This document shows positions 1,603 through 11,867 of a stretch of 23,674 bases of DNA, piece after piece (within the stretch, counting starts at the first letter, position 1; each line of letters starts with the position of its first letter). The position numbers and the translations under genes are program-made. This stretch comes from an uncultured candidate division Zixibacteria bacterium. Lineage in GTDB: Bacteria > Zixibacteria > MSB-5A5 > UBA10806. The notes below the pieces were generated by a model. That model was not told where the DNA came from. It worked only from the letters and a program-made list of their open reading frames with translations, and did no database searches. The stretch spans positions 1-23,674 of the forward strand of contig CAWFQL010000022.1 of the NCBI GenBank assembly GCA_963817915.1, in the 5' to 3' direction.

Positions 1603-2856
1603 ATGCGGATTTTTTTAATTTTTCTAGTTTGGGCGCAAGCTTTGATATTTTTATCAAACTCGACAGAAGCGCAAACCTTTGTTGGCGAATGCGAGATTGA
1701 GGGCGCGACAAATATTGGTATGAATAAAAACCCCAATTTTGTCTTTATTTCTGTAGATAGGAATCGAATAGTAGCGGTCGACGTTTCAAACCCTGCAAAT
1801 CCTTTTGTGGCCGATTCGCTTCAATTTAATACTGGAGCCATCGATTATATATTTATTCGCGACAACTCTGCCTATTTGACAGGGATAGCTTCGGATGTAA
1901 ATATTGTTGACATTTCAGATCCTTATGACATGAGATTAATTACCGAATGGCAGCCCGATGGAAACCCCGACCATTGTACCTATGTAAGACACAACATCGC
2001 CTATGTAACTACTTGCTACAGAATGCTGGTTGTTGACGTTACAAATGAATATTATCCCGAAGTAATAAGAACATTTTCTCATTGCGGTGATGGATATGGA
2101 ATTTGCGCAGAAGAAGGCTATCTTTATATAGCGGACATGAATAACGGATTGCAGATTTTTGATATCACAGATGCGGCGGATCCAGTATTATTGTCGTCAA
2201 CTCCAATATGTCAATACGCAACATTTTACTCTTCAGCTTACAATCACCACATTTATTTACCTTCGGCCGATCGCGGTATAACGATAGTCGACGCCTCAGA
2301 TCCATTAAATCCAATAGTGGATATTATAGTTGGAAGCATCAATTACATTTCCAGTACCTATATATTAAATTACTATTTGTTTGTCGTCGGCGCAGGAGAT
2401 CACGAGTTCGAACCGCATGGTCTGTTTATTTATGATATATCGGTGCCGGACGATCCGATGCTTGTTGGATATTATGAGGGATGGTTCTCGGGGGTTTGGG
2501 CCACGGAAGGTTTTGTCTACTTGGTAAGCGGGGGATTAGTAATATTATCGTTTGACGCGACTTCGAATGACCGTGGTGAAGTCCTAATTCCGAATAATAC
2601 AACTGTTTTAACCTCCTACCCCAACCCCTTCAACGCTCAGACCACGATTCGCTACTCGCTACCAGAATCGGGGCCCGTATCGCTCACAATCTACAATATC
2701 CTCGGCCAGAAAGTAGCGACACTGCTTGATGGAGTGCAGGCCGCCGGAGAGCATAGAACAGTATGGGATGCTAATGGTCTACCATCGGGGATATACCTTT
2801 GCAGGCTGCATACAAACGGATATGCAAATTCCGAACAATTATTCCTTATGAAATAA
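1603..2856 (+). CDS. LVIVD-repeat beta-propeller protein with signal peptide and T9SS-type CTD
   Basis: Hydrophobic N-terminus ending TEA-Q, repeats VDVSNPANP / IVDISDP / IFDITDAADP / IYDISVPDDP, and C-terminal SYPNPFNAQTTIRY...FLMK. Confidence 0.9.
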   Translation: MRIFLIFLVWAQALIFLSNSTEAQTFVGECEIEGATNIGMNKNPNFVFISVDRNRIVAVDVSNPANPFVADSLQFNTGAIDYIFIRDNSAYLTGIASDVNIVDISDPYDMRLITEWQPDGNPDHCTYVRHNIAYVTTCYRMLVVDVTNEYYPEVIRTFSHCGDGYGICAEEGYLYIADMNNGLQIFDITDAADPVLLSSTPICQYATFYSSAYNHHIYLPSADRGITIVDASDPLNPIVDIIVGSINYISSTYILNYYLFVVGAGDHEFEPHGLFIYDISVPDDPMLVGYYEGWFSGVWATEGFVYLVSGGLVILSFDATSNDRGEVLIPNNTTVLTSYPNPFNAQTTIRYSLPESGPVSLTIYNILGQKVATLLDGVQAAGEHRTVWDANGLPSGIYLCRLHTNGYANSEQLFLMK

Positions 2857-2901
2857 CTCAACATATTCGGAGTTCATGCCTATTCTCCGATTAAGCAAGG
2901 C

Positions 2902-2932
2902 AGGGGCGCATAACACGCGCCCCTATTTTTTT
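2902..2932 (+). terminator. Rho-independent terminator
   Basis: AGGGGCGC-ataacac-GCGCCCCT followed by A and T7. Confidence 0.8.
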
Positions 2933-2934
2933 AG

Positions 2935-3095
2935 AACCTTCTATGCCAGAAAGTAGCAACATTGCTTGACGGTGTTCAAATAGCGGGGGGCACAGGGCGG
3001 TATGGGATGCCCAAAATCAGCCGTCGGGGGTATATTTTGCAAAGCTGAAATCGGCGCAGCGCAAATCGACAACCCATATGGTGCTGCTAAAGTAA
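2935..3095 (+). pseudogene. Orphan C-terminal part of a CTD, with no start codon in the CTD frame
   Basis: Translates NLLCQKVATLLDGVQIAG/HRAVWDAQNQPSGVYFAKLKSAQRKSTTHMVLLK* if one G is added in the G-run near 2985-2990. Confidence 0.85.
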
Positions 3096-3119
3096 TATTT
3101 GTATCATAACATTTTATAC

Positions 3120-3148
3120 TTGACAAGCCCGTCTATACTAATTATCTT
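3120..3148 (+). promoter_or_regulatory. sigma70-type promoter
   Basis: TTGACA (3120-3125), 17 bp spacer, TATCTT (3143-3148). Both boxes are conserved in the second copy. Confidence 0.75.
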
Positions 3149-3154
3149 AAGATT

Positions 3155-3389
3155 ATAAATTAATAATAGCGATAACGACAGCACTTGATTTAGCATCTTT
3201 TGGATCGCTTGGAATTTTATCTATGAGGATTCCATGCGCTGTCGATTTCAGGAAAATAGCTTTAACCCCAACTGGACTCGTGCCCCCCGCTAACTTCTTG
3301 GGGGGGGGGGCATATACGCGCTCCGCCCATAACGAACCTTCTTGGCTTGTGTGTTAACATTCTTCTCTAAATCTTTAAGGAGGTTCAAG
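3155..3389 (+). ncRNA. Putative structured 5' leader RNA, copy 1 (three-way junction, C6/G11 hairpin, anti-SD helix)
   Basis: Helices 3176-82/3238-44, 3187-93/3200-06, 3210-18/3226-34, 3280-88/3305-13 and 3334-43/3377-86. Differences from copy 2 preserve pairing. The 5' end is inferred from the promoter. Confidence 0.6.
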
Positions 3390-3827
3390 ATGTCTTCCAA
3401 TTCCATTCGTACTTTCAAAATCATTGCACTTCTGATCTTCGTCTTTAGTGCCCAGTTTGTCCTTGCCAATCCGGTCCAAACCATGAGATTATATGCCGCA
3501 GATGACAATGTTCAGGACACAATAATAGCTAGGAGCGGAGTTTTTGACCCCACCGATTCCTACATGACATGGGCAGATACAATTTACTGTGATAATACCT
3601 ACTCCTATTACACAGTCTATTTAGAATATCGCGGTACAAGTATCAGTCATAGCTACCAAATGTCAAGTCTTACGCCGGGGTTAACATATACCGCTGGCGG
3701 CGGTCCTACGTGGGTTGGTCCGAGTACCAGCCATGAATTGGTTATGAGGAAAGATTCAATAGGCAACAAGAATGATCTCAGAAATCTCAGGATGAGAGTC
3801 TACTACAATGCAGGTGGCGCGGATTAA
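3390..3827 (+). CDS. Small secreted protein of unknown function (145 aa)
   Basis: AAGGAGG RBS at 3377-83 and ATG 3390. Sec-type signal MSSNSIRTFKIIALLIFVFSAQFVLA. Shares motifs with 9062..9487. Confidence 0.85.
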   Translation: MSSNSIRTFKIIALLIFVFSAQFVLANPVQTMRLYAADDNVQDTIIARSGVFDPTDSYMTWADTIYCDNTYSYYTVYLEYRGTSISHSYQMSSLTPGLTYTAGGGPTWVGPSTSHELVMRKDSIGNKNDLRNLRMRVYYNAGGAD

Positions 3828-3923: not shown

Positions 3924-6251
3924 ATGCAAAATACAAAAAATCTGTTTACGATTATTGCGTGTTTTATTGTGCTTATTTTCCATGCTTCACAGGTTCAAAG
4001 CGGTGAAAATGTATGGACGACTTCCGGCCCGGAAGGCGCAAGCGTTAAAACAATAGCAATAAATCCTATGGACAACAATGTTATTTATATAGGAACCATT
4101 CAAAACGGAATTTATAAAAGTATTAACGGGGGAGAAAACTGGACTCATTTAGAAATAAGTACAAATCTTCAATCTACTACAATGCGAAAGATCGTGGTTC
4201 ATCCCTTTGGGCCCGACACTATTTATGGGGCCACTGCCGGCGGAATATTTAAGAGTACTGATGCTGGATTATCATGGAATAATATTTCACCTCCGGGAAG
4301 AGAAAATCAGGAATACAGAGCCGTTGTCTTAGATCCATTACGGCCCTATATTATTATTACAGGGGGAGTCTGGGACCGCTGGAAATCAACAAATTCAGGG
4401 CAAAGCTGGACAGAATTTTCCATAGATCCGGAAGGTGGCATGGATCATGAAATCGACGGTTTAGCAATCAACCCTCAAAACCCTAATACTATGTTTCTTG
4501 TTACCCCTGATTCTCAATACGGGAGAGGAATTTATAAGAGTACGGATGAAGGCATTACCTGGTTTAGTACTCAAAATAATTGCGATAGCTCCGGCGTTGG
4601 CCGCGATGTTGAAATAGATCCAATCGACACTAACATTATTTATTTTGCACGAGATGACGGCTTTAGGGTATCTGGCGGGCGATTTCTATCAAAAACAACA
4701 GATAACGGGGTAACCTGGTTTGATATTTCTCCTAATGGCCTTAGTAAGTGGACGGTATTAGATATCTGTATTTCTCCAATAGATCACAATACTGTTTTTA
4801 TCGGCACCGAAACTGATGGGATATTTAAAAGCACTGATGGCGGACTTAATTGGTCTCCTCAAAATGATAGCTTGAGAGCATTAAGTGTATTCTCAATAGA
4901 AATTGCACCTTTGACAGGCACTGTTTTCTCCGGTTTTATTATGGATGGGATTTATAAGTCAGCCAATGGCGGTATTTTCTGGAGAAGAATCAGTCAGAAT
5001 ATTTTTGCGGCTGATTTAATGGATCTTGCGATTATGCCAGATTCAACTGGTGTATTTGCGGTCGGTCAAATTGGGTGTTATTTTTTGCCATCCGGAGGTG
5101 AATCATGGAGGTATATAAATACCGGAATTCCCCCTGGGAATAAACCGGGGTCAATAGAAATGGATGAACATGATCCGTCTGATATTTTTATTAATACTTT
5201 CTCGCCCATTTATCCTCCCCTGTCACCAAATGGTGTGTATCTATCCACCGATCGAGGTCTAACCTGGAGATTTTCAAACAACGGCCTTCCGGTAGACCAG
5301 GGCTATTTCGGTATAGGAATATCCTATCTTGATAATTCAAGGCAAATATACACTGGTACATTTTTTGAATTCGAGACAGCAGGCGTTTATTACTCTTATG
5401 ATATTGGGGAAACCTGGACAAAATGTCAAGGCGGATTGCCCAATCTCTCGCTTTACCCGATTATTGTTGCACCAAACAATTCCAATATCGTATTAACAGC
5501 TGATGGCGATAATAGAGTATATCTATCTACCGATAGAGGCAATACATGGCAGGAAACAACGCCCCTTCCCAGAATTGATTATGAATTTGTATTTGATATT
5601 AATATTGACCCTACAGATTATAATCATATTTTTGCTTCGTGCCATTATGGTGGACTATTTGAATCGCCCGATTTGGGCCAAAGTTGGGATAACATTAATA
5701 ATGATCTACCGCTTTATCCTTCAATTCCCAAAATATACGGCCCTGCAATAAATCCTTCTAATCCGCAAAATATGTTTGTTTTCTCAAATCATAATGGTGT
5801 GTTTCAAACTCACGATGGAGGAACCCATTGGGAATCTTTTAACAATGGTTTCGATATGAGCGCCAGCTCTGGCAATATATATTTTGCTCCGAATGATACA
5901 ACAAGTTTATATATTATTACGCCAAGCCGCTCCGTCTGGTCCATCCATCGCACATTGGACGGAGTTAATGATGATGACTCGACCTTGCCCTCCTCTCTTT
6001 CCCTTTCCTCCTACCCCAACCCCTTTAATGCGCAAACCACAATAAGCTATTCACTCGCCAAGTCCGGCCCGGTAACACTCACCATCTACAACATCCTCGG
6101 CCAGAAAGTAGCTGTACTATTTGACGGCGCGCAGACTGCGGGAGAGCATAGAACGGTATGGGATGCCCAAAATCAGCCGTCGGGAATTTATTTCTACAGG
6201 CTGAATTCCGCCCAATCCAGCAATTCCCGAACGATGCTGTTGCTCAAATAG
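3924..6251 (+). CDS. VPS10/BNR (Asp-box) repeat beta-propeller protein with signal peptide and T9SS-type CTD
   Basis: Many SxDxGxxW Asp-boxes (KSINGGENW, KSTDAGLSW, KSTDEGITW, STDRGLTW) and C-terminal SYPNPFNAQTTISY...MLLLK. Confidence 0.92.
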   Translation: MQNTKNLFTIIACFIVLIFHASQVQSGENVWTTSGPEGASVKTIAINPMDNNVIYIGTIQNGIYKSINGGENWTHLEISTNLQSTTMRKIVVHPFGPDTIYGATAGGIFKSTDAGLSWNNISPPGRENQEYRAVVLDPLRPYIIITGGVWDRWKSTNSGQSWTEFSIDPEGGMDHEIDGLAINPQNPNTMFLVTPDSQYGRGIYKSTDEGITWFSTQNNCDSSGVGRDVEIDPIDTNIIYFARDDGFRVSGGRFLSKTTDNGVTWFDISPNGLSKWTVLDICISPIDHNTVFIGTETDGIFKSTDGGLNWSPQNDSLRALSVFSIEIAPLTGTVFSGFIMDGIYKSANGGIFWRRISQNIFAADLMDLAIMPDSTGVFAVGQIGCYFLPSGGESWRYINTGIPPGNKPGSIEMDEHDPSDIFINTFSPIYPPLSPNGVYLSTDRGLTWRFSNNGLPVDQGYFGIGISYLDNSRQIYTGTFFEFETAGVYYSYDIGETWTKCQGGLPNLSLYPIIVAPNNSNIVLTADGDNRVYLSTDRGNTWQETTPLPRIDYEFVFDINIDPTDYNHIFASCHYGGLFESPDLGQSWDNINNDLPLYPSIPKIYGPAINPSNPQNMFVFSNHNGVFQTHDGGTHWESFNNGFDMSASSGNIYFAPNDTTSLYIITPSRSVWSIHRTLDGVNDDDSTLPSSLSLSSYPNPFNAQTTISYSLAKSGPVTLTIYNILGQKVAVLFDGAQTAGEHRTVWDAQNQPSGIYFYRLNSAQSSNSRTMLLLK
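6000..6149 (+). repeat. 150 bp exact direct repeat inside the CTD, partner 11616-11765
   Basis: tccctttcctcctaccccaac...gggagagcat reads identically in both propeller genes. Confidence 0.9.
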
Positions 6252-6421: not shown

Positions 6422-8524
6422 ATGAAATCGATTTATATGCTTTTTTTCCTGATTGCCGCGCTGGCAGTCGTAACTGTCGCAGAGGAAGTTAGATATGTTA
6501 ATTCGATTCTCTGGACACAGGCCGCCGATGTCGAGGTGGTCGACAATTACGCTTTCTGCGCCTTTTCCAAGGGGTTGGCCGTATTCGATATTACCGATCC
6601 CAACCCGCCAATCTGCCAGGCCAGGCTCCTTCTTGGGGGAGTGCCCCTTAGCATGGATATCGAGGGGAATTACGCCTACATAGGCGATCAATCTTATTTC
6701 CTCAGGATTATCGATATCACCGAGCCGCTCGCCCCCCAGATCGCCGGAACGTGCAGCACTCCCGGTTTAGCCTACGATATTCATATACGCGGTAATTACG
6801 CCTATATGGCCTGCGCCACCGAGGGTTTTCAGGTCGCTGATATCAGCAACCCAGACAATCCAGCGATTGTCGGCGGTGTTACCACATCGGGTAATGCCCA
6901 GGGCATTTTTGTTTACGGAGATTATGCCTTCATGGCTGATGATACGATGGGGTTGGAGATTTTCAATATCGTCAATCCCGCCCAGCCGGTTCTCATTAAC
7001 AGGGTGGATTCGCTCGGCACTGCTTACGACGTTTATGTCAGCGGCGGATATGCCTATGTCGCCAGCGAATACTCGGGACTATGGATTATCAATATAACCG
7101 ACCCCGAAAATGCAGTGATTGTTACGCGCGACTATTCCGCGGTCTATGCCAACGAAGTTCAGGTTACGGGGTCGTACGCCTATGTCGGCTCCAGGATTCA
7201 GGGGATGCAGATCATCGATATCACCGATCCTGCCAATCCCTTTTTGGCAGGTACATCCAGGACACCGTATTCGGTCAATGCCCTTTGTATCGACGGCTCT
7301 TACGCCTATATCAACGATGAATATCACGGACTGTATGTGGCCGATATCAGCAACCCCAACGATCCGGTTTTAATTGGAAGCTATAACACCAGCGGCAAGG
7401 TCAACGATGTTTGCCTGTCTGGTTCCTATGCTTATATAAGTACATATCTCTGGGGCATGCAAATTTATGATCTGGTGGATCCGGCCAATCCCAATTTACT
7501 GGGAAGTTACCCCTACGGCGGTATGGCTAACGCTATTGACGTCTCCGGTTCTTACGCTTATCTGGTAGCATCGAATTATGAATTGAAAATTCTCAGTGTC
7601 AGCGATCCCACTGACCCACAGCTAATCAGCGGTTATGGCGATCAATATTCCACCAATATCGATGTTGCCGGAAACTACGCCTATGTAGTAGGGCTTGAAT
7701 ACGGCCTGGATATTTTCGATATCTCAAACCCGCTCGGCCCATCCCGTGTCGGCAACTATAATCCGACTCCCGATATTTACGATGTCGCCGCTTCCGGTTC
7801 TTATGCCTATCTGGCAGAATGGGATACCGGCCTGGAAATTCTGGATATCAGCGATCCCGCAAACCCGATATCGGTGGGAATTTGCAATACCCCCGGTTAC
7901 GCTCAAAGCGTAGTTGTGGCCGGCTCCTATGCCTATGTCGCCGATAGCTACAGCGGCTTGAATATTATCGATATCAGCGATCCCGCCAATCCCATATCGG
8001 TAGGGCAAGTCGGCGTAATAGGAAGCGCTTATGATTTAACCGTTGTGGGCGATGTTGCCTATGTAGCGGAAATGACAAACGGTATTCGCGTTGTCGATAT
8101 CAGCAATCCTGCGGCGCCGACTCTGATCGCGTTTTATCCGACTACCGGTCTGCTTCCTGCGGTTGATGTTATGTTGCCATATATTTACATGGCCGATATG
8201 TATTCTTTGATGATATTCCATTTCGATCCCACGAGCGTTGACAACGAAGCCAACGCCCAACCGGAGGCGTTTACCCTTTCGTCATATCCCAACCCTTTCA
8301 ATGCTCAAACCACAATCAATTATACTTTGCGCGATGACGGTCCCGTCACGCTCTCTATCTATAATCTCCTCGGCCAGAAAGTGGCGACATTGTTCGACGG
8401 AGTGCAGACAGCCGGAGAGCATAGAACGGTATGGGATGCCAATGGTCTACCATCGGGGATATACCTTTGCAGGTTACATACAAATGGATATGCAAATTCC
8501 GAACAATTGTTTTTGATGAAATAA
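6422..8524 (+). CDS. Large LVIVD-repeat protein with signal peptide and T9SS-type CTD
   Basis: GGAGG RBS and about 13 regular ~42 aa repeats (V.V.GSYAYVA....GL.IIDISDPANP). The last 37 aa are identical to the 1603..2856 protein. Confidence 0.92.
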   Translation: MKSIYMLFFLIAALAVVTVAEEVRYVNSILWTQAADVEVVDNYAFCAFSKGLAVFDITDPNPPICQARLLLGGVPLSMDIEGNYAYIGDQSYFLRIIDITEPLAPQIAGTCSTPGLAYDIHIRGNYAYMACATEGFQVADISNPDNPAIVGGVTTSGNAQGIFVYGDYAFMADDTMGLEIFNIVNPAQPVLINRVDSLGTAYDVYVSGGYAYVASEYSGLWIINITDPENAVIVTRDYSAVYANEVQVTGSYAYVGSRIQGMQIIDITDPANPFLAGTSRTPYSVNALCIDGSYAYINDEYHGLYVADISNPNDPVLIGSYNTSGKVNDVCLSGSYAYISTYLWGMQIYDLVDPANPNLLGSYPYGGMANAIDVSGSYAYLVASNYELKILSVSDPTDPQLISGYGDQYSTNIDVAGNYAYVVGLEYGLDIFDISNPLGPSRVGNYNPTPDIYDVAASGSYAYLAEWDTGLEILDISDPANPISVGICNTPGYAQSVVVAGSYAYVADSYSGLNIIDISDPANPISVGQVGVIGSAYDLTVVGDVAYVAEMTNGIRVVDISNPAAPTLIAFYPTTGLLPAVDVMLPYIYMADMYSLMIFHFDPTSVDNEANAQPEAFTLSSYPNPFNAQTTINYTLRDDGPVTLSIYNLLGQKVATLFDGVQTAGEHRTVWDANGLPSGIYLCRLHTNGYANSEQLFLMK

Positions 8525-8567
8525 CTGATCTTATTCGGAGTTCATTCCAGTTCTCCAATTTAATAAG

Positions 8568-8600
8568 ACAGGGGCGCATAACACGCGCCCCTGTTTTTTT
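8568..8600 (+). terminator. Rho-independent terminator
   Basis: ACAGGGGCGC-ataacac-GCGCCCCTGT running into T7. Confidence 0.8.
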
Positions 8601-8602
8601 AG

Positions 8603-8765
8603 AACCTTCTATGCCAGAAAGTAGCAACATTGCTTGACGGTGTTCAAACAGCGGGGGGGCACAGGGTGGTGTGGGGATGCCCAAAAGCCGCCGTCGGGGG
8701 TCTATTTCGCAAAGCTGAAATCGGCGCAGCACAAATCGACAACCCAAATGGCGTTGTTAAAGTAA
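8603..8765 (+). pseudogene. Orphan C-terminal part of a CTD, copy 2
   Basis: Translates NLLCQKVATLLDGVQTAGGHRVVW/DAQKPPSGVYFAKLKSAQHKSTTQMALLK* if one G is removed near 8673-8676. Confidence 0.85.
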
Positions 8766-8790
8766 TTTTTGTATCAAAACATTTTTATAC

Positions 8791-8819
8791 TTGACAAGCC
8801 CGTCTATGCTAATTATCTT
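8791..8819 (+). promoter_or_regulatory. sigma70-type promoter, copy 2
   Basis: TTGACA (8791-96), 17 bp spacer, TATCTT (8814-19). Confidence 0.75.
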
Positions 8820-8825
8820 AAGATT

Positions 8826-9061
8826 ATAAATTAATAATAGCGATAACGACAGCACTTGATTTAGCATCTTTTGGATCGCTTGGAATTTTACTTTTGGGGA
8901 TTCCGTGCGCTGTCGATTCAGAAAAATAGCTTTAACCCCAACTGGACTCGTGCCCCCCGCTAACTTCTTGGGGGGGGGGGCACATACGTGCGCCGCCCGA
9001 TAAACTCCTTATAGTTGTACTTCACTTGTAACACCTTAAAACGATTTTAAAGGAGTTGTTT
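8826..9061 (+). ncRNA. Putative structured 5' leader RNA, copy 2
   Basis: Same helices as copy 1 (8847-53/8909-15, 8881-89/8897-8905, 8950-58/8975-83). Anti-SD AACTCCTT (9003-10) pairs with AAGGAGTT (9050-57). Confidence 0.6.
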
Positions 9062-9487
9062 ATGTACAAGAAATTAATTTTCCTTTCTATTATGGCAATC
9101 GGACTGTTTTTCTTGGCTGGTGTACAAACATCTAATGCCTGCGGAAATCAATATTCTATTTCGGCCCAAGATGACAGCTATTTACCAGTGGAACAGAACT
9201 ATGATCCCTGCGACTACTGGGTATCTTGGACCTTTTCATTGAAACGAAATTCGGCTGATAATGGTACTCATGTAGTTGTTAGGTTTGAGGTTATAGGAGC
9301 GAATGTGCTAGAAGATTTCGATTCTCTCGATTTCGATCATTGGGAGACAAAGACTCGTACCGGCGAAGCGTATGTTGGGCCTAGCACTTCAAATACAATT
9401 AAAATATCTAAACTTTCAGGAGTGGGGACAAAATTCACTAACCTGTCAAATTCTGTAAATTATTACAACGATAACGGTAGTAAGTAA
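9062..9487 (+). CDS. Small secreted protein of unknown function (141 aa), distant paralog of 3390..3827
   Basis: AAGGAG RBS and ATG 9062. Signal MYKKLIFLSIMAIGLFFLAGVQTSNA. Shared VGPSTS and YYN motifs. Confidence 0.85.
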   Translation: MYKKLIFLSIMAIGLFFLAGVQTSNACGNQYSISAQDDSYLPVEQNYDPCDYWVSWTFSLKRNSADNGTHVVVRFEVIGANVLEDFDSLDFDHWETKTRTGEAYVGPSTSNTIKISKLSGVGTKFTNLSNSVNYYNDNGSK

Positions 9488-9554: not shown

Positions 9555-11867
9555 ATGTCAACGATTAAAATGATAGCGTATAAAGTTAGTATCATGCTTT
9601 TTATGTCGCTTTACGGTGTGCCCGCTAATTCACAGGATAATACTTGGGTAACCAGCGGTCCACCTGGTGGCAGCATAATGACAATCGCTATCAACCCATT
9701 AAATAACAATATCATATATGTTGGAACCGTTCAAAAAGGAATATTCAAGACTACCGACGGCGGAATATCATGGCGGCATCTTGATTCGAACATACTCTAT
9801 ATGAATCAGAGGGTAATTGCTATTCATCCTACGGCCCCAGACACGGTATATGCTGCCACAAATGGAGGCATTTTTAAGAGCAGTGACGCCGGTGAAACAT
9901 GGCGATTACTCTATCCTCCTTCGGGGCACGATGCTGAATATAGGGCTTTTATCATTAATCCCCAAAACCCAAGCATGCTTTTTGCTGGTGGCCTTCCAGA
10001 ATGGAAATCCACGGATAGCGGCGAATCATGGTTTCAGCTAAATATATGGCCCCGCGTAGGCATAGATGCCTTTGCCGTTAATTATCGCAATCCAAATGAA
10101 ATGTATTTCGCCAGCGGTTCGGTTCTTTATGGTTTAGGAGTATGGAAAAGTGATGACATGGGCGAAACATGGTTTTCAATCCAAAACAACATCGATTCCA
10201 GTCGCAGCACCGGAACAGATGTAGCAATCGATCCTACTGATAGTAATATCTTATATTTTAGTAGAAACTCCGTTAACTCCGGAAATAATAAATGTTTGTT
10301 CAAGTCAACGGACGGCGGACAATATTGGATTGATATTTCTCCACAACAATTAACGGAATTTAATATTAAAAAAATCGCAATATTTCCACATAACAATCAG
10401 ATTATCTTTGTATGTACTTTTACCGATGGCGTGCTTAAAAGCACCGATGGCGGCGTAGCTTGGGTGCCAAAAAATCAAGGACTCGATGGCTTACGCACCA
10501 AAACAATAGTAATTGATTCGATATCAGACATAATTTACCTCGGTACATATATCAATGGGCTCTACAAATCGCTTGATAACGGCGAAACATGGCAGAGTAT
10601 TAGCGAAAATATTACAGCATCATACTGCAATACAATCGCTTTTAAGCCGGATGATCCATCTCCAATATATGCGTCAGCCACCAATGGAATTTTTAAATCC
10701 GCGGACATCGGGCAGTCCTGGGAGCGTATAAACATTGGAATTCCGATTCAAAATATCCCCGGCGGCGGCATTATATTTGACAATCTTAACAGCAACAATA
10801 TATTTCTAACCAGTAGTCAGACGGAATTCCCCGATGTTCCTGCCGGAATCTACCGCTCGACCGATTCCGGTGTTAGTTGGGAATTTCTCATTAACGGAAT
10901 AGCGCTGGAAATCGGACTAAACGATATAGCGATATCCTGCCTCTCCACTGGAGAAAAGCGTCTTTTTACAATAGGGCAAGGAGTATACTTTTCGGATGAT
11001 ATGGGCGATTCCTGGAATCTCTGCGACGGTTTTTCACCTAATGGCCCTATTCACACAGTAATCGATCTTGCCCCCAATAATCCCAATATAATTGCGGTTG
11101 GCGAGGGTTGGGGCGAATGGGATCAGCGAATTTTTATCTCGACAGATCGCGGTGAATCATGGAATCAGACAACTCCTTTGCCATCAAGACATTTTCCCGG
11201 AATAAACAGCTTAAAATTTGATCCTCAAAATGCTAATCATATTCTGGTTGCCAGCGACAATGTAGGGCTTTTCGAGACTTATGATTTTGGTACAAGCTGG
11301 GCCGATTTGACAAATCAGGTGCCTCTCTTACCGCAATATAGGGAGTACCCGGCAATTTCCGGTATTGCCATCAATCCCAACAATCCTATGAATTACTTCA
11401 TCCAACCTCCTTTTCAGGGGGTCTATCAGAGCCATAACGCCGGTCTTACATGGGAGCCATTTAATAACGGACTCGATACGGCTTTTGCCTATGGCAAAAT
11501 ATATTTTATGCCTGATGATACTACACGCTTATTTGTTACCGGCCATGCGGTATCTACCATCCATCGCACTCTCGACGGTGTCGACGATGACGCGCCAACA
11601 TTGCCTGCTATCCTCTCCCTTTCCTCCTACCCCAACCCCTTTAATGCGCAAACCACAATAAGCTATTCACTCGCCAAGTCCGGCCCGGTAACACTCACCA
11701 TCTACAACATCCTCGGCCAGAAAGTAGCTGTACTATTTGACGGCGCGCAGACTGCGGGAGAGCATTCGCTGGTCTGGGATGCCCAAAATCAGCCGTCGGG
11801 GGTGTATTTTTACCGCTTACAGGGCGGAAACTTCTCGAAATCGAGCCAGATGGTCCTCCTGCGATAG
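9555..11867 (+). CDS. VPS10/BNR (Asp-box) repeat beta-propeller protein with T9SS-type CTD, paralog of 3924..6251
   Basis: Same blade organisation (W.TSGP.G.S..TIAINP..NN.IY.GT.Q.GI.K...), multiple Asp-boxes and a CTD. Confidence 0.92.
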   Translation: MSTIKMIAYKVSIMLFMSLYGVPANSQDNTWVTSGPPGGSIMTIAINPLNNNIIYVGTVQKGIFKTTDGGISWRHLDSNILYMNQRVIAIHPTAPDTVYAATNGGIFKSSDAGETWRLLYPPSGHDAEYRAFIINPQNPSMLFAGGLPEWKSTDSGESWFQLNIWPRVGIDAFAVNYRNPNEMYFASGSVLYGLGVWKSDDMGETWFSIQNNIDSSRSTGTDVAIDPTDSNILYFSRNSVNSGNNKCLFKSTDGGQYWIDISPQQLTEFNIKKIAIFPHNNQIIFVCTFTDGVLKSTDGGVAWVPKNQGLDGLRTKTIVIDSISDIIYLGTYINGLYKSLDNGETWQSISENITASYCNTIAFKPDDPSPIYASATNGIFKSADIGQSWERINIGIPIQNIPGGGIIFDNLNSNNIFLTSSQTEFPDVPAGIYRSTDSGVSWEFLINGIALEIGLNDIAISCLSTGEKRLFTIGQGVYFSDDMGDSWNLCDGFSPNGPIHTVIDLAPNNPNIIAVGEGWGEWDQRIFISTDRGESWNQTTPLPSRHFPGINSLKFDPQNANHILVASDNVGLFETYDFGTSWADLTNQVPLLPQYREYPAISGIAINPNNPMNYFIQPPFQGVYQSHNAGLTWEPFNNGLDTAFAYGKIYFMPDDTTRLFVTGHAVSTIHRTLDGVDDDAPTLPAILSLSSYPNPFNAQTTISYSLAKSGPVTLTIYNILGQKVAVLFDGAQTAGEHSLVWDAQNQPSGVYFYRLQGGNFSKSSQMVLLR
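11616..11765 (+). repeat. 150 bp exact direct repeat, partner 6000-6149
   Basis: Identical to 6000-6149 on reading. Confidence 0.9.

Follow-up and report, generated by a model that had tools for sequence, protein, structure and literature searches.

The window, by which we mean the whole stretch of DNA that was analysed, is an entire contig (C22; 23,674 bases) of an uncultured Zixibacteria genome of 3.33 Mb in 22 contigs. The contig starts with tandem paralogous gene units. In each, a gene for an LVIVD-repeat protein that carries a C-terminal sorting domain for type IX secretion (T9SS) is separated by a long intergenic stretch from a small ORF, which is followed by a gene for a BNR/sortilin-repeat protein (Table 1). 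A self-comparison revealed a duplicated block, 88% identical over 723 columns, that begins with the last part of the LVIVD sorting domain, runs through the terminator of that gene, a sorting-domain relic, a promoter-like site and the leader, and stops 58 nt before the ATG of the small gene. Outside this block the gene units are unalignable as DNA, with small ORFs that are 27% identical at the protein level and 38% identical in DNA columns. Both copies of the three-way junction considered here lie inside the block.

Table 1. Features of the paralogous gene units, with positions given for the window
Feature	Copy 1	Strand	Copy 2	Remarks
LVIVD-repeat protein gene	1603-2856		6422-8524	T9SS C-terminal sorting domain
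Duplicated block	2614-3332	+	8282-9003	About 720 nt
Intrinsic terminator of upstream LVIVD-repeat gene	2902-2930	+		GC stem, then T7
T9SS sorting-domain relic	2932-3095	+	8600-8765	Degenerate, frame-broken, partial, non-coding; 72-81% identity to the contig's other sorting domains
Promoter-like site	TTGACA 3120-3125; TATCTT 3143-3148	+		Sigma-70-like; 17-nt spacer; 10/12 matches
Three-way junction (RNAfold)	3176-3244	+	8847-8915	Five substitutions in copy 2, all in the P3 loop or P3 3´ arm
P1	CGACAGC 3176-3182 / GCTGTCG 3238-3244			
P2	GATTTAG 3187-3193 / TTGGATC 3200-3206			
GC/GC helix	3207-3208 / 3236-3237			2 bp; U bulge next to it
P3	TGGAATTTT 3210-3218 / AGGATTCCA 3226-3234			Loop ATCTATG, 3219-3225
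Hairpin with homopolymer arms	3283-3310	+	8953-8980	C6 3283-3288, 11-nt loop, G11 3300-3310; G11 of copy 2 at 8970-8980
Candidate anti-Shine-Dalgarno (anti-SD) word	GAACCTTCTT 3334-3343	+	AACTCCTT, from 9003	Predicted pairing with the Shine-Dalgarno sequence
Shine-Dalgarno sequence (SD)	AAGGAGGTT 3377-3385	+		Core predicted to be paired in copies 1 and 2 (copy 1: unpaired probability 0.00-0.16)
Small secreted protein gene	3390-3827	+	9062-9487	145 aa; ATG 3390-3392
BNR/Sortilin-Vps10-repeat protein gene	3924-6251	+	9555-11867	775 aa; T9SS sorting domain

The relic sits in the intergenic region, past the real stop codon and the terminator of the LVIVD gene. One metagenome contig joins position 2755 straight to 2999, which suggests that relatives carry an uninterrupted sorting domain at this place and that the genome studied here has gained about 243 nt by insertion or duplication. 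There are five coding segments for T9SS sorting domains on the contig (1278-1534, 2546-2802, 5941-6197, 8214-8470 and 11557-11813), with 62-88% DNA identity, and the left edge of the duplicated block falls within one such segment. Repeats of this kind could act as recombination substrates.

From the promoter-like match alone, transcription is predicted to start at about 3155-3157, a position from which the junction would begin some 20 nt downstream. The junction is probably located in a transcribed 5´ leader that extends about 234 nt to the ATG at 3390. The word CCCGTCTAT, which is found in the promoter spacer (3129-3137), also occurs at a different offset just before a -10-like TATTTT in the homologous leader of another genus (L172, G004:C79), and may be either a chance occurrence or a regulator site.

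The MFE and the centroid structures of 3170-3250 computed by RNAfold are both exactly the three-way junction, at -25.3 kcal/mol compared to -14.6 +/- 2.7 kcal/mol for 200 dinucleotide shuffles, none of which was as good (z -3.95). The sequence, the positions and the three helices P1, P2 and P3 agree with those given in an earlier note on this DNA, which had also placed the element about 20 nt after the predicted start. The same fold is recovered as the centroid in each of the two 240-nt leaders, and its pair probabilities are 0.62-1.0 in the full predicted leader of both copies. In these models, the junction folds as an autonomous domain. The strands that connect its helices are short, with four unpaired bases in J1/2, none in J2/3, and none or one in J3/1. 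In a coarse scan of the contig (81-nt windows with 16 shuffles each, the minus strand covered in part), 26 of 1554 windows reached z <= -3.9, several of them terminators; the stability of the junction is therefore in the top 2% of contig windows and is not unique.

The opposite strand of the junction also folds well (-21.8 kcal/mol, z -3.88), 3.5 kcal/mol less stably than the plus strand and with P2 largely lost, because 5 of the 25 pairs in copy 1 and 7 of the 25 in copy 2 are G-U. That both strands fold, that P1 constitutes a 7-bp inverted repeat, and that a GC hairpin (3283-3310) follows 40 nt downstream of the junction are all features that could be expected of a DNA-level site, such as an operator or inverted repeats for recombination, or of part of a separate small RNA terminating ahead of the operon. 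However, the G-U pairs would be mismatches in duplex DNA, the downstream hairpin lacks a U tail, a scan found no terminator between 3149 and the ATG, and the ORF that begins at 3223 has lost its ATG in copy 2. We consider it highly improbable that the element is of either kind.

Copy 2 differs from copy 1 by three substitutions in the P3 loop (3220 T>C, 3221 C>T and 3223 A>T, converting ATCTATG to ACTTTTG) and two in the P3 3´ arm, where the A>G changes at 3226 and 3234 each face a U. These are the changes that the earlier note had described, and all 25 pairs are standard in both copies. With just two sequences to compare, two pairs are changed on one side and none on both sides. In simulations, five random substitutions were all compatible with pairing with a probability of 0.015-0.10, depending on the share of transitions, and five substitutions clustered within 15 nt were all compatible with a probability of 0.03-0.13. 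The caution, voiced in that note, that two copies give weak statistical support was well placed.

The relic, which is presumed to evolve close to neutrality, provides a yardstick for conservation of the junction. Identity between the copies is 82.1% for the coding sorting domain, 84.0% for the 3´ UTR and terminator, 91.6% with two indels for the relic, 93.4% for the promoter region, 100% for 3156-3175, 92.8% for the junction, and 90.9% for the rest of the block, which is the 3´ part of the leader. The junction (92.8%) is therefore no better kept than the relic (91.6%), and its conservation may reflect only a recent duplication or gene conversion. On this account, an intergenic block of 720 nt was recently duplicated, or homogenised through gene conversion between the tandem units, and a stable fold that arose by chance in AT-rich DNA has not yet decayed and has no function of its own. 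The account is in keeping with an identity no higher than that of the adjoining non-coding relic, with the presence of just two copies, both within the block, with the lack of any pair changed on both sides and the weak significance of the compatible substitutions, and with the similar z values of about 2% of the contig windows and of the opposite strand. Other observations fit it less well. The flanking genes have diverged past recognition at the DNA level, and no part of the unit is better preserved than the non-coding block. Moreover, there is not one change between the copies over the 82 nt from 3138 to 3219, nor over 3253-3312, against an average divergence of about 8-12% for the block, and none of the five changes breaks a pair. 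We regard an incidental fold as quite possible, if somewhat short of an even chance.

Metagenomes supplied additional versions of this sequence. A look-up of sequencing runs for the locus returned five DNA runs with small shares and no RNA runs, and contigs from four metagenome runs contained further versions of the promoter and leader. One contig has a diverged sorting domain, then 178 unrelated bases, and then 3089-3197 with 14 differences, of which all those listed are at or before 3166. A second contig, covering 3185-3375, has 3223 A>G, 3226 A>G, changes at 3248, 3252, 3272 and 3280, and one deletion, and a third run gave pieces spanning 3089-3205 and 3175-3330. The differences listed fall at 20 positions in 3097-3167 and at just two in the junction (3223 A>G in the loop and 3226 A>G, which turns U-A into U-G); with 45 differences beyond those listed, these counts, and the apparent invariance of 3168-3222, set a lower bound on the variation. 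Even in the divergent versions, which are 83-87% identical in the promoter part, the P1 5´ arm and P2 are without change among the differences listed, a point that also weighs against an incidental fold. Considering the two copies and the metagenomes together, position 3223 is found in three states (A, T and G), and the P3 loop is therefore not expected to make a specific contact. Constrained stems and an unconstrained P3 loop could produce such a pattern, which does not amount to a covariation test.

A search of the whole window against Rfam 15 gave no matches at the gathering score, in agreement with the impression of the earlier note that the element belongs to no known riboswitch class. 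At E <= 10, the region 3100-3400 gave only three matches at chance level, the best of them to the eukaryotic snoRNA SNORD11B (E 2.2; 17.4 bits, where the gathering score is 50). We built a covariance model, R1, from the two junction copies, and these two were the only ones found in the genome itself, where the third-best match scored 13.6 bits (E 8.7) and blastn matches beyond the two copies were at chance level (E >= 0.2). R1 had no match in any of the 13 genomes of the family or the 23 other genomes of the order, and blastn against 60 relatives detected no homologue, only two AT-rich matches of 22 nt. With filters off, R1 likewise found no junction upstream of 11 homologous genes, comprising the third paralogue in this genome and 10 loci elsewhere (best match 10.9 bits, E 0.57); the third paralogue's leader differs in its 5´ portion and lacks the junction. 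An exact 19-mer from the P2 3´ and P3 5´ arms gave six chance matches among 185,579 species genomes, none of which fits R1. In metagenome contigs, a gapped pattern of 23 bases had no matches, and a looser pattern anchored on P1 had at least 120, of which 80 were examined and none was related to the junction. Among these 80, 26 are 78 nt long, most of them representing one protein-coding word that we take to be typical of tyrosine recombinases, and R1 matches at the 80 loci were on the opposite strand with at most 24.2 bits. The junction is real, is retained in both copies, and is restricted to this lineage. Its absence from the 23 genomes of the order and from the 11 homologous loci is a further point in favor of an incidental fold.

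The earlier note proposed that the junction serves a new cis-regulatory RNA as its aptamer or protein-binding domain, here one that would control the two-gene operon by sensing a ligand or a specific protein. A stable and defined three-way junction in a long leader, positioned 5´ of a helix predicted to mask the SD, would suit such a role, as would stems that are kept while the apical loop varies, and the absence of an Rfam family would suit a new class. Three-way-junction aptamers, such as the purine aptamer (RF00167), and the hammerhead ribozyme have a P1 that encloses two hairpins, and the junction in this 5´ leader shares the overall topology, its two enclosed hairpins being 7-9 bp long and capped by loops of 6-7 nt. 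It differs from three-way-junction riboswitches and the hammerhead in that hardly any unpaired bases connect its helices, which gives a pocket little space, the loops differ between copies, the element occurs in one lineage only, and no Rfam match rises above chance. The aptamer of a riboswitch would be conserved across species upstream of related genes; this junction is instead confined to one genus-level lineage, while the same operon and leader platform occur across the order without it, and homologue collection for a covariance model yielded only the two tandem copies, with no double-sided change. Nor did the predicted folds of the full leader contain an alternative, mutually exclusive pairing that would link the junction to the expression platform, and removal of the junction in silico left the predicted SD pairing unchanged, so that the predicted fold is uncoupled from the ribosome-binding site. 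The three states of 3223 likewise do not fit a sensor that contacts the P3 loop.

The leaders of related genes were compared as well. Of 285 genomes in the class, 15 encode homologues of the small secreted protein; these belong almost exclusively to this order (8 of 13 genomes in family f1, 5 of 10 in f2 and 1 of 5 in f4) and have up to six copies per genome. The genome studied here has a third copy on another contig (C18, 13957-14349). The secreted proteins of this family are roughly 140 aa long (141-145 aa for the copies in the window), share the motifs AQC, YDPCD..W..F.RT and VGPSTSHEL, and have no match in Pfam or NCBIfam. An AlphaFold model (pLDDT 82) gave Foldseek matches to jelly-roll proteins with TM 0.4-0.5, including viral protrusion domains, TNF/C1q-like trimers and the BC2L-C lectin N-domain, and a jelly-roll fold is thus predicted. 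For the downstream ORFs, 20 of 24 were put to Pfam, the remainder being the two C22 copies, which were already annotated, and two ORFs of 136 aa. All 20 carry Sortilin-Vps10/BNR repeats, and the two-gene module is therefore conserved.

There were 33 matches to the small protein, 32 of which were examined after a 51-residue fragment was dropped, and for 30 of these the sequence extends 450 nt upstream. In 24 of the 30 leaders (L166-L196), across at least 10 genera, a run of six or more G or C starts 79-148 nt before the ATG, and TTGAC[AT] is found 189-306 nt before the ATG in 17 of the 30. Runs of six or more occur once per 10 kb in this genome, with a chance expectation of 0.0058 per 58-nt window. 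In the window, the G11 tract at 3300-3310 lies between the promoter-like site and the ATG, in the predicted leader, and the same layout is seen in 24 of the 30 leaders. A C-rich word (GTCCACC, TCCGCC, GCCTCC and similar) is usually present 3´ of the run, and in many leaders this word is the best partner of the SD region. For the anti-SD words of the two copies in the window, the best duplexes with the SD region have predicted energies of -16.0 and -11.6 kcal/mol, and we infer that the SD is masked. An upstream ORF through the G tract, starting at the ATG at 3223, was considered and rejected because copy 2 lacks the ATG.

The tract varies in length. Over the leader family it ranges from G7 to G12 and from C6 to C10, and of the four runs of 11 or more in this genome, each of the three paralogous leaders holds one (G11, G11 and G12, the last at C18:13838-13849), while the fourth is inside a gene that it splits into two frames. 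One metagenome contig has one G fewer in the tract at 3300. Two paralogous leaders in genome G017 are near-identical over 260 nt except that one has G7 and the other G11, the kind of length difference between strains or recent copies by which a phase-variable leader is recognized. The leader family is probably phase-variable.

A structured 5´ domain is not a general feature of these leaders, and we rejected it as such. The 5´ parts of 15 leaders, the two C22 copies among them, have a median z of -0.08 compared to -0.11 for coding controls, the exceptions being one leader at -5.3, one at -2.1, and the copies in the window at -1.8 and -0.9 over a longer segment. A structured 5´ domain is therefore not required in the leader family, and the conserved features that are likely to be regulatory lie 3´ of the junction rather than in it. 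Given the absence of the junction elsewhere, an unusual structure that is not family-wide, SD pairing that is unaffected by the junction, and junction strands that are nearly absent, an aptamer is disfavored, and an accessory module or an incidental fold is favored. We think it unlikely that the junction is a sensor domain. As described by sequence and predicted folding, the G or C tract together with the anti-SD platform is a better-supported result than any function of the junction.

If the junction has been selected, we suggest that it is a young, lineage-specific accessory in the 5´ leader of a two-gene operon and not the regulatory core. The core, shared by homologous leaders across the order, would comprise a G (or C) tract of changing length some 100 nt 5´ of the ATG and, after it, the anti-SD word that would mask the ribosome-binding site. 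The junction, which would sense no ligand, could have a structural role as a stable 5´-proximal domain that protects the long leader from decay. Alternatively, it may keep the first 90 nt from mispairing with the platform formed by the G tract and the anti-SD word, or may offer a docking site for an RNase or another protein. We put forward such a selected structural module of a probably phase-variable leader, whether stabiliser, folding insulator or docking site, tentatively and with a little less than even confidence, the same as for an incidental fold. Known stabilisers at the 5´ terminus of bacterial mRNAs, such as the ompA leader, are simple hairpins at or a few nt from the 5´ end. The junction resembles them as a stable 5´-proximal structure in a long leader whose sequence is unconserved outside close relatives; it differs in being a junction and in beginning about 20 nt past the predicted start. 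A more ambitious version of the model, which we consider unlikely, is that the whole leader is a new cis-regulatory unit of Zixibacteria-type genomes in which a hypermutable G tract and the anti-SD word set translation of multi-copy T9SS cargo modules, giving phase variation via RNA folding, and in which the junction gained in this lineage binds a factor (a protein, an RNase or a small molecule) and thereby adds a physiological input to a stochastic switch.

There are parallels to the G tract and the structured leader in other bacteria. The tlpB G-repeat of H. pylori is a transcribed repeat that tunes expression post-transcriptionally (PMC8295292). As in the tlpB/RepG system, the G homopolymer described here varies in length and belongs to a 5´ leader, which in our case is predicted to be transcribed, with a tie to post-transcriptional control that for our leaders is deduced from sequence. 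The two differ in that the partner of the tlpB repeat is a trans-acting small RNA, whereas the partner here would act in cis (the C6 arm and the anti-SD words), and the three-way junction has no known counterpart in the tlpB system. In Haemophilus influenzae, the hmw1A 5´-UTR hairpin is a target of RNase III that is needed for repeat-dependent phase variation, so that folding of the UTR contributes to how a surface protein gene phase-varies (PMC12721329). A simple-sequence repeat is transcribed there within a structured 5´ UTR and pairs with a G-rich region, an arrangement predicted for the leaders here as well. The hmw1A leader differs in having a heptamer repeat and a long single hairpin, while here a three-way junction is followed by a hairpin that contains a homopolymer. 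A limited literature search found no published description of these Zixibacteria leaders, which does not establish that there is none.

On its own, the junction matters little, as it is an unproven leader structure restricted to one lineage and is not to be counted as a new riboswitch class at present. The leader context is more useful, since it comprises two-gene modules for secreted proteins of an uncultured phylum that have a positionally conserved, length-variable G or C tract beside a word predicted to mask the SD. If tract length tunes translation, environmental, non-pathogenic bacteria would show the behavior of contingency loci at the RNA level, and the tracts would help to identify the surface or secreted proteins that are varied by these organisms. 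The longest homopolymer in the genome lies elsewhere. It is a run of 13 C on the plus strand of another contig (C3:38811-38823), and thus G13 on the gene strand, inside a minus-strand gene, which breaks at the tract into two overlapping frames (335 and 254 codons). The run looks like either a contingency tract in a coding region or a sequencing slip.
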